DNA of 16,129 nucleotides, taken from assembly GCA_037441385.1 (NCBI GenBank), contig JBBISH010000134.1:1-16129 (forward strand), given 5' to 3'. Made by a program: the position numbers and the translations under genes. Numbering within the stretch: the first letter of the stretch is position 1; every line of letters begins with the position of its first letter. Origin of the DNA: Myxococcales bacterium. GTDB taxonomy: Bacteria; Myxococcota_A; UBA9042. Positions 794 through 6,296 of the stretch are shown here, piece after piece. The notes beneath the pieces were generated by a model that saw only the letters and a list, made by a program, of their open reading frames with translations, was not told the origin of the DNA and ran no database searches.

Positions 794-1813
794 CTACCAG
801 CGGCCAGCCACCACTAGACCACTCGCCGTCGGCGCCACCGCCACCGGCACCGCCCCGTCGCGCAGCCACAGCCAGGTGCCCACACCCGCCGCCACCACAC
901 CCGCGCCCGCAAGTGCCCAGCCCAGTTGGTACTGCCCCTCGATGCGGCTGGCCTCTTGGGCGGCGGCCGTGTAGCTGATTGCGTCCACATGACCGGCCGA
1001 ATCCCTATGCTGCACCTGGCTTTGCAGAGTGCTGTCCGCGCTGGAGGCCAACCCCAGCACCACCCCACCGCCCAGCAGGGCCGCGACGCCTGTCCCCAAG
1101 ACCGCGTAAGCCAGGACGGGAGCCGGCCGTGGTTCCGCGGGCTTGCTGACAACGGGAACAGGCGCCACGGGGACTCTGTCCGGCTTGGCGACCACGACCT
1201 TGGCCGCCGGTCGCAGCTCGTCGCGCCACCGCTCCGCATCTCCGCGCTGCGGTTCGTCCGCTTTGGCCGCCTGCAACCACTCGTCGTACATGGCCACAGC
1301 CACATCCGCGTGTCCGGCCAGTTGCTCGGCGCGAGCCCGCCGCAGCTGCCAGTCACGGCGGTCCGCTTGGAACCCCACCGCGTCGGCCCAGCGCTGGGCG
1401 GCCAAGGAGAAATTGTTCGCCGCCTCGGCCTGTTGCGCCTCGTCCGCCGCTTTCTGGCCGCGCTTCTTGGCCACTTCGGCGGCAAAGGCCTGGACCTTGG
1501 TCTTGACCGGCGCCTCGAACTGCGGATGAGCCAGAATCTCGGCATACAGCTCGGCGGCCTGGGCCAGCTTGCCGGCCATGTGGTGGGCGCGGGCGGCGTT
1601 GTACAACGCCCCGAGTTCACTGGGTTCTTGCCGGTAGATCTGCAGGAACAGCTCGCCAGCCCGGTCGAAGTTGCCGGCGTCGAACTCGCGCTGGGCAGCG
1701 GCGCTGAGGGCTTTGACGACCTTGGAGGCAGCGGCGAACGCGGCTTGTGGCGGGTAGGCAAGGTGGGCGCAGATTGCGAATACCGCAATACTGCTGAAGA
1801 AACGTAGATGCAT
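794..1813 (-). CDS. Secreted tetratricopeptide-repeat protein with C-terminal hydrophobic segments
   Basis: 339 aa. Signal peptide ends near AAFA. TPR-like helices include AQREFDAGNFDRAGELFLQIY and ALYNAARAHHMAGKLAQAAELYAEIL. A Pro-rich linker leads to two Gly-rich hydrophobic stretches and the terminal GLVVAGRW. Confidence 0.85.
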   Translation of the reverse strand: MHLRFFSSIAVFAICAHLAYPPQAAFAAASKVVKALSAAAQREFDAGNFDRAGELFLQIYRQEPSELGALYNAARAHHMAGKLAQAAELYAEILAHPQFEAPVKTKVQAFAAEVAKKRGQKAADEAQQAEAANNFSLAAQRWADAVGFQADRRDWQLRRARAEQLAGHADVAVAMYDEWLQAAKADEPQRGDAERWRDELRPAAKVVVAKPDRVPVAPVPVVSKPAEPRPAPVLAYAVLGTGVAALLGGGVVLGLASSADSTLQSQVQHRDSAGHVDAISYTAAAQEASRIEGQYQLGWALAGAGVVAAGVGTWLWLRDGAVPVAVAPTASGLVVAGRW

Positions 1814-1977
1814 GGTCGCCTCTGCAAGCGGCTTCGCCGGTCACCGGGCGCAATCGCTCTGCGTGGGCCAAATTGCGTCGTGGCTGTACGAAGCTACGCC
1901 CGAATGGGGTTGGTGGTCAAGGTGGGGTGTTACGAGCTGGACCCTCAATGGCGCCTTGTGCCGCGACCTCGCCAGGA

Positions 1978-2035
1978 GCCCTCATCCCCCGCGCCTCCGG
2001 CGCGACCCCTTCTCCCAACGCATTGGGCGAAGGGG
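1978..2035. repeat. Left 58-bp REP-like double-hairpin inverted repeat (downstream of the DUF559 gene)
   Basis: GCCCTCATCCCC-CGCGCC(TCC)GGCGCG-A-CCCCTTCTCCCAA(CGCA)TTGGGCGAAGGGG. 51/58 identical to the reverse complement of 2505-2562 by manual alignment. Confidence 0.95.
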
Positions 2036-2047
2036 TGTCGGGCCGGA

Positions 2048-2464
2048 TCATGGTCTTGGAGAGTTGCGCTCAGCCATGAGGCGAGTCTGCCGCTCGCGCA
2101 TGGTCGCCGGTTCGGCAGCGGATAGCGCCTTCGCGATGGCGCTGACCACGGTCGATACCTGCCCCACAACCTGGTCACTACCGAACCTCAGGACTTGCCA
2201 GCCGTTCTGCGCAAGCCAACAGTCCCGCGCCGCATCCTGGCTTGCCTGCGCCGGTTCGTCATGGACTCCGCCATCGACCTCGATGACCAGGCAATGCGAC
2301 AGGCAAGCAAAGTCTACCACCCAGCCGCAGATGTGGACTTGGCGCCGAAATTTGTAGCCGGCAACCCCTCGACCACGCAGCAACCGCCACATCGCAGCCT
2401 CGGCCGGTGTGGCTGTGCGACGAAGGGAGCGGTTCAACGCAATGTCCGCAGGCCTATCTGGCAT
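2048..2464 (-). CDS. DUF559 family (Vsr-like, PD-(D/E)xK fold) endonuclease domain protein
   Basis: 138 aa carrying the family motifs RSLRRTATPAEAAMWRLLR, KFRRQ, VDFAC, LVIEVDGGVH, DAARDCWL and GWQVLRF. GGAG RBS lies upstream of the ATG at 2464. Confidence 0.93.
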   Translation of the reverse strand: MPDRPADIALNRSLRRTATPAEAAMWRLLRGRGVAGYKFRRQVHICGWVVDFACLSHCLVIEVDGGVHDEPAQASQDAARDCWLAQNGWQVLRFGSDQVVGQVSTVVSAIAKALSAAEPATMRERQTRLMAERNSPRP

Positions 2465-2504
2465 GGTCTTGCTCCTGCACCAGCCTCAAATTTCGCTGTT
2501 TCTT

Positions 2505-2562
2505 CCCCTTCGCCCAATGCTTTGGGAGAAGGGGTGCCGCCAAAGGCGGCGGGGATGAGGGC
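2505..2562. repeat. Right 58-bp REP-like double-hairpin inverted repeat (upstream of the DUF559 gene)
   Basis: Reverse complement reads GCCCTCATCCCC-GCCGCC(TTT)GGCGGC-A-CCCCTTCTCCCAA(AGCA)TTGGGCGAAGGGG, an inverted copy of 1978-2035. Confidence 0.95.
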
Positions 2563-2652
2563 CTCGACCCGCGCCGCCAAGCGCCCCGCAAATGAAGCCA
2601 ATAACCCACCCCATTCCCAAAACCAACTGCAACTTCAACACGCTAGACCCAA

Positions 2653-2668
2653 AGTTGCGCGCGCAACT
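2653..2668. other. Perfect 16-bp palindrome AGTTGCGCGCGCAACT (weak terminator or protein-binding site)
   Basis: The sequence is its own reverse complement. It lies about 27 nt past the Uma2 stop and has only a short T run after it on the minus strand. Confidence 0.5.
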
Positions 2669-2694
2669 CTGACTCGTGGCGGACGGCGCTGGCG

Positions 2695-3303
2695 CTACCC
2701 CTCGCCGGCCGCCAGCCGCCCGGCGCGCTTGGGCGTCTCGACCGGAATCTCTAGGTCGGCGTACAGCGCGTCGACCGCCAGCTCGACCGACAGCGCCTCG
2801 ACCCGCGCCACCTCGCCGGCGCCATAGGCCGAAAAGCGCCAGAACGGGCCCTCTTGGCGCTCGTAGACCTCGACCAGCTGCATCTCGGTGCTCACCAGCA
2901 CGTAGGCGCGCAGCGACTCGATCTTGCGGTAGGCGGCGAACTTGCCTTCGCGGTCGTAGATGGCGGTGGAAGGGGACAGGACCTCCAAGATCAGCGTGGG
3001 GTGGCGCTGTACCAGCGTCTCGCCGCGGTCGCGCTCATCGCACGTCACAAAGGCGTCCGGGTAGTAGTAGTCGCCCGTGCGGTCCACCTTCAACTTGACA
3101 TCGATCATCCAGGTGCGACATTGGCGCCCCGCCAGCTTGCCGCGCAGGTCGGTCACCGCACGATAGACCAGCTCATTGTGGGTCAAAGTCGTCCCAGTCA
3201 TGGCAAAGATCTCGCCGCCCACGTACTCGTGCCGCCCTTCGGCCGTGGCCTCGAACTCCAAGTACTCCGCCTCGGTGACCGTGTTCACAGCTGGCAATGG
3301 CAT
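2695..3303 (-). CDS. Uma2 family (DUF820) putative endonuclease
   Basis: Motifs EYLEFE..RHEYVGGEIFAMTG..H, YYPDAFVTC, PTLILEVLSPSTAIYDREGKFAAY and SLRAYVLVS. The ATG at 3303 is 5 nt from a GGAGG RBS; the track's 3306 start is the adjacent GTG. Confidence 0.93.
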   Translation of the reverse strand: MPLPAVNTVTEAEYLEFEATAEGRHEYVGGEIFAMTGTTLTHNELVYRAVTDLRGKLAGRQCRTWMIDVKLKVDRTGDYYYPDAFVTCDERDRGETLVQRHPTLILEVLSPSTAIYDREGKFAAYRKIESLRAYVLVSTEMQLVEVYERQEGPFWRFSAYGAGEVARVEALSVELAVDALYADLEIPVETPKRAGRLAAGEG

Positions 3304-3340
3304 CACGACCTCCCTGGTCCGGCGCGCCGCGGCGCAGCTG

Positions 3341-4780
3341 CTAGTCTACCATCTTGATGGCGCCGGCGCCGGGCTTTTTTGCCGCTGGCTTGGCTGCACT
3401 GGCCTTGGCTGCCGGCTTGCCGTCGCCGGTTGGCTGAGCAGCTGCGGGCGCAATCGGCGGAGGTGCGGCAACTGCGGGAGGCGGACTGTCGGAGACTGGA
3501 GCCGGTGTGGGCGCCGGAGCGGGAGCCGCAACCGGTGCAGCGACCGGAGCGGCGACCGGCGTGGGACCCGGAGCGGGGACCGGGGCCTGGACTGGCGCCG
3601 CAGCCGGGGCCTTCATCGCCGGTTCCGCGCCATCCCCTGCGACCGCCGCGCTGGCCGGTTTGGCCACCGGCGTCATGCCTAGCCAGGCCGCCACCGCCAC
3701 CCCCGCCGCGACCAGGGCCACCGCCGCCACCAGCACCACCCGGCTGCGCCCCTTGCCCTGATCCGCCACCGCCTGCGCCGCCATCTTGGTTTGGGTATTG
3801 AGCGGCAGGGTCGCGTCGACGTCCAAAACCGTGGGTGCGGCCGTTTTGGGCGTGGAATAGGGCTCCGTGCCCGGACTGATCAGCCGGGACGGCGTGCCGG
3901 CCCAGGCGCCGCCCAGCACCGCCTCCAACGCCGCCCGCATGGACCGCGCATCGGCGTACCGCTGGCTGGGCTCCTTGGCCAGCGCCGTCGTGATGACCTG
4001 CACAAAGGCATCGGAAAGGGGTTGCTTGGCCAGCGCTCGCGGGTCCGGGATGTCGGCCATCAGGTGCAGGTTCATCAAAGCCATGGGGTTGTCGCCGCCG
4101 TTGTAGGGCGGCCGGCCGGTCACACAGCAATACAGGATGCAGCCGACCGCATACAGATCCGAGCGGCCGTCGAGTTTCAGCGCCTGCCATTGCTCGGGGC
4201 TCATGTACGACGGAGTGCCCAACAGCCGGCCGGCATTCGTCATGGCTGAGTCATGGACACGCGCGATACCAAAGTCTAGGACCTTGCATAGCTCCTCGCC
4301 GCTGCCGTCGTCCGTCAAGAACACGTTGCCAGGCTTCAGATCGCGGTGCACCAGGCCCGTGCCGTGGGCCTCGGCCAAAGACTTGAGGATCTGCACGCCG
4401 TAGCGCGCCGCGTCGGCCTCGGCCATGGTCTGGCCCTTGCGGCCGAGCTCGCGGATGCGCCGGTCCAGGCCTTGGCCTTCCAGCAATTCCATGGCCATGA
4501 ACATCGCGCCGTCGTCGGTGCGGCCAAAGTCATACAAGCGCACGGTGTTCGGGTGGCGCAGCTTGGCCATCACTCGCGCTTCTTGCTCAAAGCGGGCGTA
4601 GAACTCCTCCTCTTCCTCGTCGCCGATGGTCATGAACTTCAGAGCGACCCGCTGCCCCGACGACACATGCTCTGCGGCAAACACCGCGCCCATCGCGCCC
4701 TTTCCAACCGTGCCGGTGATGCGGAAGCGCCCCGCCACCACGTCGCCCACGACCGGAGTCGTCACCGAAGAATCGCCCAT
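3341..4780 (-). CDS. Membrane-anchored Hanks-type Ser/Thr protein kinase (Pkn2/PknB-like)
   Basis: Kinase motifs GKGAMG, VALK, HRDLKPGN, DFG, GTPSYMSPEQ and DLYAVG. One TM helix (VVLVAAVALVAAGVAVAAWLGM) is followed by a Pro/Ala-rich tail. Confidence 0.96.
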   Translation of the reverse strand: MGDSSVTTPVVGDVVAGRFRITGTVGKGAMGAVFAAEHVSSGQRVALKFMTIGDEEEEEFYARFEQEARVMAKLRHPNTVRLYDFGRTDDGAMFMAMELLEGQGLDRRIRELGRKGQTMAEADAARYGVQILKSLAEAHGTGLVHRDLKPGNVFLTDDGSGEELCKVLDFGIARVHDSAMTNAGRLLGTPSYMSPEQWQALKLDGRSDLYAVGCILYCCVTGRPPYNGGDNPMALMNLHLMADIPDPRALAKQPLSDAFVQVITTALAKEPSQRYADARSMRAALEAVLGGAWAGTPSRLISPGTEPYSTPKTAAPTVLDVDATLPLNTQTKMAAQAVADQGKGRSRVVLVAAVALVAAGVAVAAWLGMTPVAKPASAAVAGDGAEPAMKAPAAAPVQAPVPAPGPTPVAAPVAAPVAAPAPAPTPAPVSDSPPPAVAAPPPIAPAAAQPTGDGKPAAKASAAKPAAKKPGAGAIKMVD

Positions 4781-4901: not shown

Positions 4902-6296
4902 CTACAACCCCGCCCGACCCAACAGCACCATCAGCTGGGCTTCGGCCGTGCGTTGGTCCAAACGCGCCTGTATCGCTGCCAGCTGCGCCCGAACCACGGC
5001 GGTCTCGGCGTCGGCGACCTCGATCCACAGACCGGCCCCGGCCTGGTAGCGGGCGCGCGCCGCGTCGCGTGCGGCCTGGGCAAACTCGACCTGCATCTGC
5101 GCAACCGGACTGCGCTTCTTGGCCTGCAGCCAGGCCGACAGGGCCGTGACCAGTTGCCCACGCAGCGCCAGCACTTGGTTGTCGCGGTTGGCGATCAAGG
5201 CGGAGATTTGGCCTTTGGTATCGGCGATTTGTGGCGACACGGTCCACCACGCCGCCAGCGGCACGCTGATGCCGATGGTACCGGCCACGTGCGTCTGCAC
5301 GTCAGATGCGGATGTGCCGCTGGCTTGGGTGATGCCCGAAACGTACAGGCTGGGCCGCAAGGTGCGCTGCACGGCCAACAGCTGGGCCTGCAGGGCCGCC
5401 ACGCGCTCGCGCAACGCCGCGTACTCGGGGCGTTTGTCCACAGCCTGCGCGAGCAGGCCATCGATAGTCGCGTCGTCGTCCAAGGTTGCGGTGGCGGCGT
5501 CGCCCAGGTCAAAGGCCGGCTCGCTGAGGTTCCCGGCCGCCAGCCGCCGCTCGCCCATCGCCACCGCCAGCACTTGCCGCTGGGCCCGCGCCGCCTCTTC
5601 GGCCCGCAAGACGTCGCCTTCGGCCGCGGCCAAGTCCGCTTCCACCTTGAGCCGGTCCAGGTCGGGTTTGGCGCGCAGCGCGACTTGCTGGGCGACGGCA
5701 TCGCGCGACCGAATCAGTTGGTCGCGACCGGCCTTGACCACTTCCAGGGCTGCATCGGCGCCCAGCACCGCCAGCCATGTCGTGGCCACGCCCTGCCAAA
5801 GCTGGGCACGCACCGCCGCGACGTCGCGCTCGGCCGCGGTGGCCGACTTCTCGGCAGCCTCTACACTGGCCGCGGTCTTGCCAAAGTCGAATGCCGTCCA
5901 GCGCGCACTGCCCGTCACCTGGAACGCCGGGGTAAAGCTGAAGGTATCGCTGAATTTGGCCGATCCCGCCGCCGCGGGTGCTGCAGTTTGGGCGGCCAGC
6001 GTCTGCGTATGGCTGGCGTCGATGCTCGCCGTGGGCAGCCAACCGTTGCGAGCGGTGCCGATCTGGGCGCGAGCACTCTCTATCCGAGCCAGGGCCGCCT
6101 GCAGCGACGGGTGAGCGCGCAGGGCCCGTTGCCACGCCTGGTCCAGGTTTGCCGGGAGCTCGGTGGCATGCGCTGGCGCAGTCCAAGCAAGTCCACACAC
6201 TACAAGCGCAAGTAGGTTAGACTGAACTGCTAGTCCAATCCACTTTGCAGTAGACTGGACGTACAGTCCAATGGAGTTGCAGCGGCAGCTACTCAT
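4902..6296 (-). CDS. TolC family outer-membrane efflux protein
   Basis: Two outer-membrane efflux repeats (ALRAHPSLQAA...WLPTAS and AVDKRPEYAAL...LRPSLY) plus ARARYQAG...EVADAE. The start is placed at ATG 6296, which overlaps the permease stop (ATGAGTAG). The track's 6410 start lies inside the permease. Confidence 0.9.
   Translation of the reverse strand: MSSCRCNSIGLYVQSTAKWIGLAVQSNLLALVVCGLAWTAPAHATELPANLDQAWQRALRAHPSLQAALARIESARAQIGTARNGWLPTASIDASHTQTLAAQTAAPAAAGSAKFSDTFSFTPAFQVTGSARWTAFDFGKTAASVEAAEKSATAAERDVAAVRAQLWQGVATTWLAVLGADAALEVVKAGRDQLIRSRDAVAQQVALRAKPDLDRLKVEADLAAAEGDVLRAEEAARAQRQVLAVAMGERRLAAGNLSEPAFDLGDAATATLDDDATIDGLLAQAVDKRPEYAALRERVAALQAQLLAVQRTLRPSLYVSGITQASGTSASDVQTHVAGTIGISVPLAAWWTVSPQIADTKGQISALIANRDNQVLALRGQLVTALSAWLQAKKRSPVAQMQVEFAQAARDAARARYQAGAGLWIEVADAETAVVRAQLAAIQARLDQRTAEAQLMVLLGRAGL
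6218..6282. repeat. Imperfect tandem repeat (33 + 32 nt), each unit containing TAGACT-N8-AGTCCAAT
   Basis: TAGACTGAACTGCTAGTCCAATCCACTTTGCAG (6218-6250) is followed directly by TAGACTGGACGTACAGTCCAATGGAGTTGCAG (6251-6282). Confidence 0.75.

Follow-up and report, generated by a model that had tools for sequence, protein, structure and literature searches.

A DUF559 nuclease gene framed by inverted BoxC/TMECO-like repeat units: a candidate selfish cassette

We analysed a stretch of DNA of 16,129 nucleotides (hereafter the window), which is contig C134 of a genome of 6.6 Mb assembled in 221 contigs (G000). Positions 1978-2562 of the window form a unit of 585 bp in which a DUF559 gene lies between two inverted arms of 58 nt. 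The arms (1978-2035 and 2505-2562) are 88% complementary, lie 469 nt apart and are the longest inverted pair of the window. The initial annotation had described a lone gene of 138 codons between inverted 58-nt repeats, placed 12 and 40 nt from it in a 585-bp unit, and our searches returned the same coordinates throughout. The features of the unit are as follows:

1978..2035, + strand: left arm, a TM-type unit on the 3' side of the gene (inverted-repeat search, folding, genome copies)
1978-1989: leader of the left arm, 12 nt, C-rich
1990-2004: small GC hairpin of the left arm, 15 nt, 6-bp stem, 3-nt loop
2006-2035: long hairpin of the left arm, 30 nt, 13-bp stem with one T.C mismatch, 4-nt loop
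2036..2052, + strand: 17 nt past the left arm, including the DUF559 stop codon (2048-2050), common to the solo unit of contig C79
2048..2464, - strand: DUF559 (Vsr-fold PD-(D/E)xK) nuclease gene, 138 aa (ORF, PF04480)
2465..2504, - strand: 40-nt spacer from the start codon to the right arm; GGAG precedes the ATG by about 8 nt
2505..2562, - strand: right arm on the 5' side of the gene, the left-arm unit inverted (inverted-repeat search, folding)
2505-2534: long hairpin of the right arm
2536-2550: small hairpin of the right arm
2551-2562: G-rich tail of the right arm

The stop codon is separated from the left arm by 12 nt (2036-2047), the start codon from the right arm by 40 nt, and the small hairpin from the long one by a single base in each arm. 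Sequence and folding both confirm the proposed order of a leader, a 6-bp GC hairpin and a 13-bp hairpin with the same single mismatch in the two arms. Folding of the four arm strands as DNA gives -22.4 to -23.8 kcal/mol; relative to shuffled sequences, the z-scores lie between -2.6 and -4.3. The two small hairpins differ in sequence and both pair, which indicates that the changes between them are compensatory. Read by eye, the leader mirrors the reversed C-arm of the first hairpin at 10 of 11 positions. A scan of the cassette for sigma-70-like promoters and terminators found none, and there is no target-site duplication at the window (1975-1977 versus 2563-2565). Rfam returned two sub-threshold mir-150 matches, on the hairpins only, which we took as chance.

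Other features of the window lie close to the unit. An element of about 60-85 nt at 2590-2672 ends in the palindrome AGTTGCGCGCGCAACT, just past the stop of a Uma2 gene. It has copies at C79:3226-3294 (87-88%), C154:12610-12674 and C60:33303-33333, and the one on C79 likewise lies about 10 nt past a gene end. The neighbouring gene (2695-3306, - strand) encodes a Uma2-family putative restriction endonuclease (PF05685, E 1.3e-30), which matches the PADLOC candidate defence family PDC-S03 (E 6.5e-25). Positions 1-870 hold cysteine-rich repeats (…DDGNxC…) with the direct-repeat families D1, D2 and D4; these repeats belong to a large ORF on the minus strand that continues beyond the start of the window.

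The product of the framed gene matches PF04480 with 107.6 bits (cut-off 20.6, E 3.9e-31) over profile positions 6-108 of 109. It keeps all 18 residues that are invariant in a 33-sequence alignment of the family (18/18), including D51, E62, D64 and H68, which we take to be its catalytic residues. The long start of the gene is supported by a paralogue on contig C46, which aligns from residue 1. The AlphaFold model of the protein has a pLDDT of 83. Its best Foldseek match is 3HRL, the DUF559 structure of NGO0050 (E 7e-7, TM 0.85), which phmmer also retrieves from the sequence (E 1.2e-17); NGO0050 and E. coli YcjD belong to the same DUF559 family as the window protein. The second match is the homing endonuclease I-Bth0305I (3R3P; E 1.5e-4, TM 0.78-0.81). 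The entry 1CW0 was matched with E 0.02, and the Vsr and PvuRts1I/AbaSI nucleases gave weaker matches than 3R3P. The protein is predicted by this model to have an intact Vsr-like PD-(D/E)xK fold with the invariant residues in place, and I-Bth0305I is its closest characterised match. NCBIfam PRK09767 matches with E 1.3e-22, which is below the cut-off of that model. We rejected an assignment as a defence gene, for which PADLOC and NCBIfam gave just weak domain-level matches to large defence proteins (DpdF, ProA).

To our knowledge, DUF559 is a very large orphan family that has a solved structure and no assigned role. One member has been linked to DNA damage in cells. According to passages of a recent report (PMC12907096), Caulobacter VsrA (CCNA_02930), which carries the same DUF559 domain as the window protein, elicits the SOS response upon deletion of a cytosine methyltransferase. 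DUF559 proteins can thus damage DNA in cells. The methyltransferase is not adjacent to VsrA, and the same passages propose a mismatch-repair enzyme paired with it; they make no mention of repeats beside the gene. At the window gene, a search for a linked cytosine-5 methyltransferase was negative among the four ORFs scanned around it, which are the DUF559 gene itself and those for a TPR protein, the Uma2 protein and a Ser/Thr kinase.

The arms are dispersed in the genome, a point that the initial annotation had proposed to check. The full 58-mer has four copies, namely the two window arms, C46:6381-6438 and C79:3360-3417, and a pattern made of the leader and the first hairpin arm has 51 matches in the 6.6 Mb, against 0 for the reversed-pattern control. 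A looser search with the leader gives 97 matches, of which a few are not units (e.g. C4:121691, C42:35536). The small hairpin takes 26 distinct sequences among the 51 units, and 23 of these form a 5-6 bp stem at the same place, which indicates that the structure is kept through compensatory change. The mismatch of the long stem is kept in 41/41 hairpins of the A type, 30/31 of the B type and 4/4 of the T type, and is restored to a Watson-Crick pair in none.

PF04480 is found at three places in this genome: in the window, at C46:6000-6314 and as a domain within a 997-aa frame on contig C23. The gene on C46 (C46:5937-6341) has 58% amino acid identity to the window protein over residues 1-135. 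It is framed by units at 5773(+) and 6438(-), the upstream one 40 nt before the start codon as in the window. Hence, each of the two stand-alone DUF559 genes of the genome is flanked on either side by a unit no more than about 110 nt away. The T-type leader subtype, to which the window arms belong, has four copies: three are arms of these two genes and the remaining one is the solo unit on C79. The latter (G000:C79:3343-3417) resembles the window over 75 nt with 93% identity, up to the DUF559 stop codon and no further. It could be a deletion remnant of a cassette, as it shares with the window the unit, the 17 nt to the stop codon and, further on, the 85-nt element; the junction is not clean. 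The two genome copies of the cassette are just 58% identical, as expected of old paralogues, and thus give no sign of recent movement.

Units of this genome also pair with one another. We found 19 pairs with the leaders outside, two of them with the gene, and none with the leaders inside. Their lengths fall into the following groups:

122-127 nt: gene-less, 8 pairs
175-184 nt: gene-less, 7 pairs
230-231 nt: gene-less, 2 pairs
585 and 666 nt: gene-bearing, 2 pairs

The gene-less doublets of this genome have the topology of the cassette. All those examined (15/15) are nested in a larger MITE that has its own inverted ends CCTGCCTTACCGG, so that their copy number in this genome needs no DUF559. 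The superfamily of this MITE has 283 end matches (with at most two mismatches); its complete copies number 32 and measure 144-392 nt. About 15-20 solo units lie in unrelated contexts, and in this genome it is just these and the gene frames that bear on a link with DUF559. The interior of the MITE is modular: some copies hold TM doublets and others unrelated GC hairpins (e.g. G000:C153:7865-8096 and G000:C85:22374-22580 are copies of this MITE). A further element, about 105 nt long and bounded by inverted ends of its own, interrupts the loops of TM long hairpins, in the A type as well as in the B type (e.g. G000:C14:61026-61255, C64:29285-29515, C165:3981-4314 and C68:11696-12084).

We considered whether an HUH enzyme could be the mobiliser of these units. 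PF01797 (Y1_Tnp) has six matches in the genome, all away from the window gene, and no TM unit lies beside the gene at the five loci that we examined. These are flanked as follows:

L004, 1358-1913: Y1_Tnp with a flanking inverted repeat of 30 nt at 97%
L005, 1364-1931: Y1_Tnp with a flanking inverted repeat of 70 nt at 84%
L006, 950-1931: Y1_Tnp with a flanking inverted repeat of 31 nt at 100%
L007, 921-1914: Y1_Tnp with a flanking inverted repeat of 32 nt at 97%
L008: Y1_Tnp with a weaker 22-nt pair only

Four of the five loci have their own, different flanking repeats, and a RAYT as the mobiliser of the TM units was rejected. Since the Y1_Tnp genes are framed by other repeats, the TM units have no HUH partner in this genome. 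The repeat of L004 resembles hairpins inside the 144/207-nt versions of the MITE, and that of L006 and L007 (GGTGTCAGGTATTG...) also adjoins several MITE copies.

We searched 41 genomes for the protein, including the one described here, and found a DUF559 match in nine, several of them within long frames; within the genus the figure is 4/10. Among the relatives, one locus (L015) has arms of 54 nt that are 91% complementary and of another sequence, with the same layout of leader, small hairpin and long hairpin and the leaders outside. Another (L014) has arms of 31 nt, and in two genomes (G008, G006) the unit lies on one side only. The exact unit has 0-5 copies in 40 relatives, against 51 in G000. 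Solo units of the T type occur in two genomes where DUF559 was not found, G009 (90% complete, five units) and G002 (69% complete, one unit). An empty site at an orthologous locus, which had been suggested as a check, was not found: BLAST of window positions 800-3400 against 25 relatives gave paralogous fragments and repeat units, and no syntenic locus. Excision or empty joints across the cassette were likewise not seen in contigs of three sequencing runs of one study, where contigs break at the arms.

To cover other phyla, we collected 80 loci with an alignment of eight sequences, of which 77 could be scored and 76 were kept after dropping one (L055) whose score came from masked runs of N. As these eight closer sequences were used rather than the alignment of 33, the survey covers one subclade of DUF559 only. 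Controls were 290 intervals shifted by 800-1000 nt within the same loci. Flanking inverted repeats scored above the 95th percentile of the controls in 64 of the 76 loci, which bears out the expectation that inverted hairpins flank DUF559 genes across taxa. The median score of all loci, L055 included, was 23.5, against 9.5 for the controls, and scores of at least 25 were reached by 35/76 loci and by 3/290 controls. The usual arm of a homologue is a hairpin followed by a G-rich tail beside the start of the gene. The orientation could be scored in 50 loci: 33 have the tails inside, five have them outside and 12 are ambiguous; the window, with its leaders outside, is the reverse of the usual case. 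In most homologues the arms overlap the ends of the ORF, and the C-terminal tails that many of the proteins have, such as PHPSPLPKGEGE, are translated repeats. The stems, read by eye, are perfect in most arms from other phyla. None of 35 loci has a flanking direct repeat of at least 3 nt.

On the protein tree, loci of one arm class group together: there are 13 changes, against 21.7 in shuffles, and none of 200 shuffles was as low. We regard this as weak evidence, since related sequences have labels in common. One clade with support 99 joins a locus of Pseudomonadota (L044) and one of Binatota (L066) that have a rare arm type in common, which suggests that the gene and the arm type travelled together between phyla in this clade. 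In all three other genomes that we searched, the arm of the cassette is dispersed, with 22, 22 and 62 matches in G041, G042 and G044. Other genomes have one to five DUF559 copies, and the Hyphomicrobiales genome G044 has five. The 12 close inverted pairs that we read in it all have the tails inside, like the cassette, and are made of the same units of long hairpin, small hairpin and tail. In place of the gene they have a spacer of about 30 nt, which is capable of forming a hairpin in most of them. One cassette of this genome (L121, 1397-1886) fills the spacer between pheS and pheT, genes that we read from their translations, and its stop codon overlaps the start of the second gene.

The repeats can be compared with a known family. 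The TMECO motif, as described in passages of Holder et al. 2015 (PMC4666352), is a hairpin with a G-rich third block, and such motifs are widespread. Its commonest type has one mismatched position (the 'mm' type), and at five E. coli sites two subtypes form an inverted pair. These passages also link BoxC/PIT/TM repeats to local genome instability, report that no mobility functions were found near TMECO sites and call the origin unclear. The word 'endonuclease' is absent from the paper. The unit of the window has the three blocks of such motifs, two hairpin arms and a third block that appears to mirror one of them. Compared with the published descriptions in PMC4666352, the likeness extends to C-rich and G-rich hairpin arms with a third block that is G-rich (C-rich on the other strand), to the single mismatched position of the commonest type, and to the occurrence in many bacteria, in intergenic positions, as single units or as close inverted pairs of two subtypes, comparable to the A+B doublets described here. 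The arms of three homologues (L024, L025 and L028) nearly match an oligonucleotide printed in that paper. The window differs from TMECO in having a 15-nt GC hairpin in place of the short second loop and, relative to the parts of that description considered here, in that the units frame a nuclease gene. From their sequence, we consider the arms to be a variant of the BoxC/PIT/TMECO intrastrand-triplex repeats, rather than classical REPs.

The gene ycjD of E. coli K-12 offers a partial parallel. It ends inside a TM-like hairpin, and a canonical TMECO lies about 170 nt downstream. Unlike the window gene, it has no TM unit upstream, and its frame is one-sided. At this locus (L102, 3740-3920), a partial duplicate of the last ~50 bases of ycjD lies between the degenerate hairpin of the stop codon and the canonical TMECO. 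We found no description of a pairing of DUF559 with BoxC/TM repeats in the literature within our coverage, which leaves out subscription journals. There was nothing on repeats in the titles, abstract beginnings and passages of the DUF559 literature, nor in the titles of the ycjD literature together with passages of PMC1189080.

Some known systems resemble the cassette in part. In REP/REPIN elements and their RAYT genes ('REPtrons'), a small nuclease-type gene is flanked by inverted hairpin repeats that are dispersed as singlets and doublets without target-site duplication. The DUF559 cassette shares the single small nuclease-type gene, the inverted hairpin flanks, the dispersed repeat and the lack of a target-site duplication, and differs in having a Vsr-fold PD-(D/E)xK protein (PF04480) instead of an HUH Y1 enzyme (PF01797) and three-block triplex-motif repeats. 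It also differs from the MITEs of DDE transposons, as no target-site duplication of at least 3 nt was found (0/35 loci, and none at the window). The structural match I-Bth0305I is itself a selfish nuclease whose spread relies on break and copy; the sequence identity to the window protein is only 22%. I-Bth0305I lies within a phage gene, in the context of an intron or intein, whereas the window gene is free-standing, intergenic and framed by repeats, and no empty allele of it was found.

Taken together, we favour the reading, to which we give a probability of roughly 45%, that the 585 bp form a small selfish cassette, which spreads along with the gene-less doublets through nuclease breaks and copying repair, and not by an HUH or DDE mechanism. 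The DUF559 protein would cut at or beside an extruded hairpin or triplex form of the TM repeats. The break might then be repaired from another member of the family, with the arms of 40-60 nt serving as homology, and the gene could thereby be copied into gene-less doublets in a homing-like manner. We prefer break and copy to a transposase-like cycle because a hydrolytic nuclease cannot rejoin DNA. The recurrence of the frame, the dispersed arms, the pheS-pheT insertion, the patchy distribution and the DNA damage seen in vivo (passages of PMC12907096) speak for a selfish cassette. Several results count against it: no empty site was found, the two copies are 58% identical, the doublets are nested in a MITE, the arm subtype has four copies, units occur in the DUF559-negative genomes G009 and G002, the orientation is reversed relative to 33/50 loci, ycjD is one-sided and the clustering on the tree is weak. 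The mobility of the cassette is our inference.

The initial annotation had seen in the locus a possible analogue of REP/RAYT. On such a model, DUF559 would act in trans as a mobilising enzyme that recognises the folded single-stranded units, cuts them and rejoins them like a transposase. The analogy is supported in part. The frame of inverted hairpins is real, non-random and general (both genome copies, 64/76 homologue loci), the gene, like a RAYT, has its own repeat family on both sides, while the Y1_Tnp genes of the genome have other repeats, and cognate dispersed copies exist in four genomes (G000 and 3/3 others), with doublets read in G000 and G044. No target-site duplication was found, and the conserved mismatch of the stem (41/41, 30/31 and 4/4) orients the hairpin. 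The equation with REPs needs correction, as the repeats are of the BoxC/TM triplex type, and the idea that DUF559 propagates the repeat family is not supported: nothing shows that the protein moves repeats, and the examined doublets of G000 ride in a different MITE. PD-(D/E)xK nucleases act on DNA by hydrolysis, with no covalent intermediate, so that rejoining would need other factors. In addition, the exact arm type of the window has four copies only, and the count of units among relatives does not track the presence of DUF559. We therefore regard such an enzyme as unlikely. The initial annotation had also called the conserved mismatch notable because Vsr-type enzymes cut at mismatches. Vsr acts at a T.G mismatch. 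The one in the stem is T.C (G.A on the other strand), is known in TMECO, and is missing from most arms elsewhere, which are perfect; we have set the idea of a Vsr substrate aside for these reasons.

If DUF559 were instead a host nuclease for very-short-patch repair, of the Vsr kind, the flanking repeats would be passive and would gather at the gene or insulate its expression. The predicted Vsr-like fold and the place of ycjD in the E. coli chromosome, which we assume to be fixed, fit this explanation, as does the functional tie between VsrA and a non-adjacent cytosine methyltransferase in Caulobacter (passages of PMC12907096). It accommodates poorly that in most homologues the ends of the ORF run into the arms, whose tails are translated, that the gene and the arm type seem to move together between phyla, that the distribution among relatives is patchy, that one cassette sits inside the pheS-pheT spacer and that no methyltransferase is encoded by the four ORFs scanned. 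The compact frame, the overlap of arms and ORF, the matching doublets and the lack of target-site duplication are easier to reconcile with a selfish cassette than with a host gene that has passive neighbours, and so are the patchy distribution across phyla and the fold akin to a homing endonuclease; we judge a host repair role quite improbable. As for a neutral juxtaposition of an abundant repeat and a small gene, it could be expected in a genome as rich in repeats of several families as this one. At a density of about 97 leader matches per 6.6 Mb, about 0.2% of gene ends should have a unit within 150 nt, whereas both ends of both stand-alone DUF559 genes have units and 64/76 loci elsewhere are framed too. 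Given these units and the 51 matches against 0 in the control, we consider chance to be excluded for practical purposes.

A selfish cassette of this kind might be one instance of something wider. We put forward, as a doubtful proposal, that DUF559 and BoxC/TM repeats form an unrecognised class of minimal mobile elements of about 0.4-0.6 kb, present across phyla, in which the nuclease would recognise the folded end and drive the spread of itself and of the doublets. BoxC/PIT/TM repeats are abundant and conserved, and passages of PMC4666352 leave their origin and spread unexplained. If the proposal is true, the origin of repeats that have been orphans since the early 1990s would be explained, and the pairing would give these BoxC/triplex repeats a partner enzyme. 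The cassette would then be among the smallest protein-coding selfish elements defined, and a single purified protein with a few oligonucleotides would suffice to test the long-standing question. Many annotated DUF559 proteins carry a stray Pro/Gly-rich tail, which could then be understood as a translated repeat.

DUF559 domains also occur in other architectures. In G044, a 437-aa ORF (L128, 514-1827) ends in a fused DUF559 domain whose motif is degenerate; the N-terminal part of this ORF, read by eye, resembles an RNA methyltransferase.
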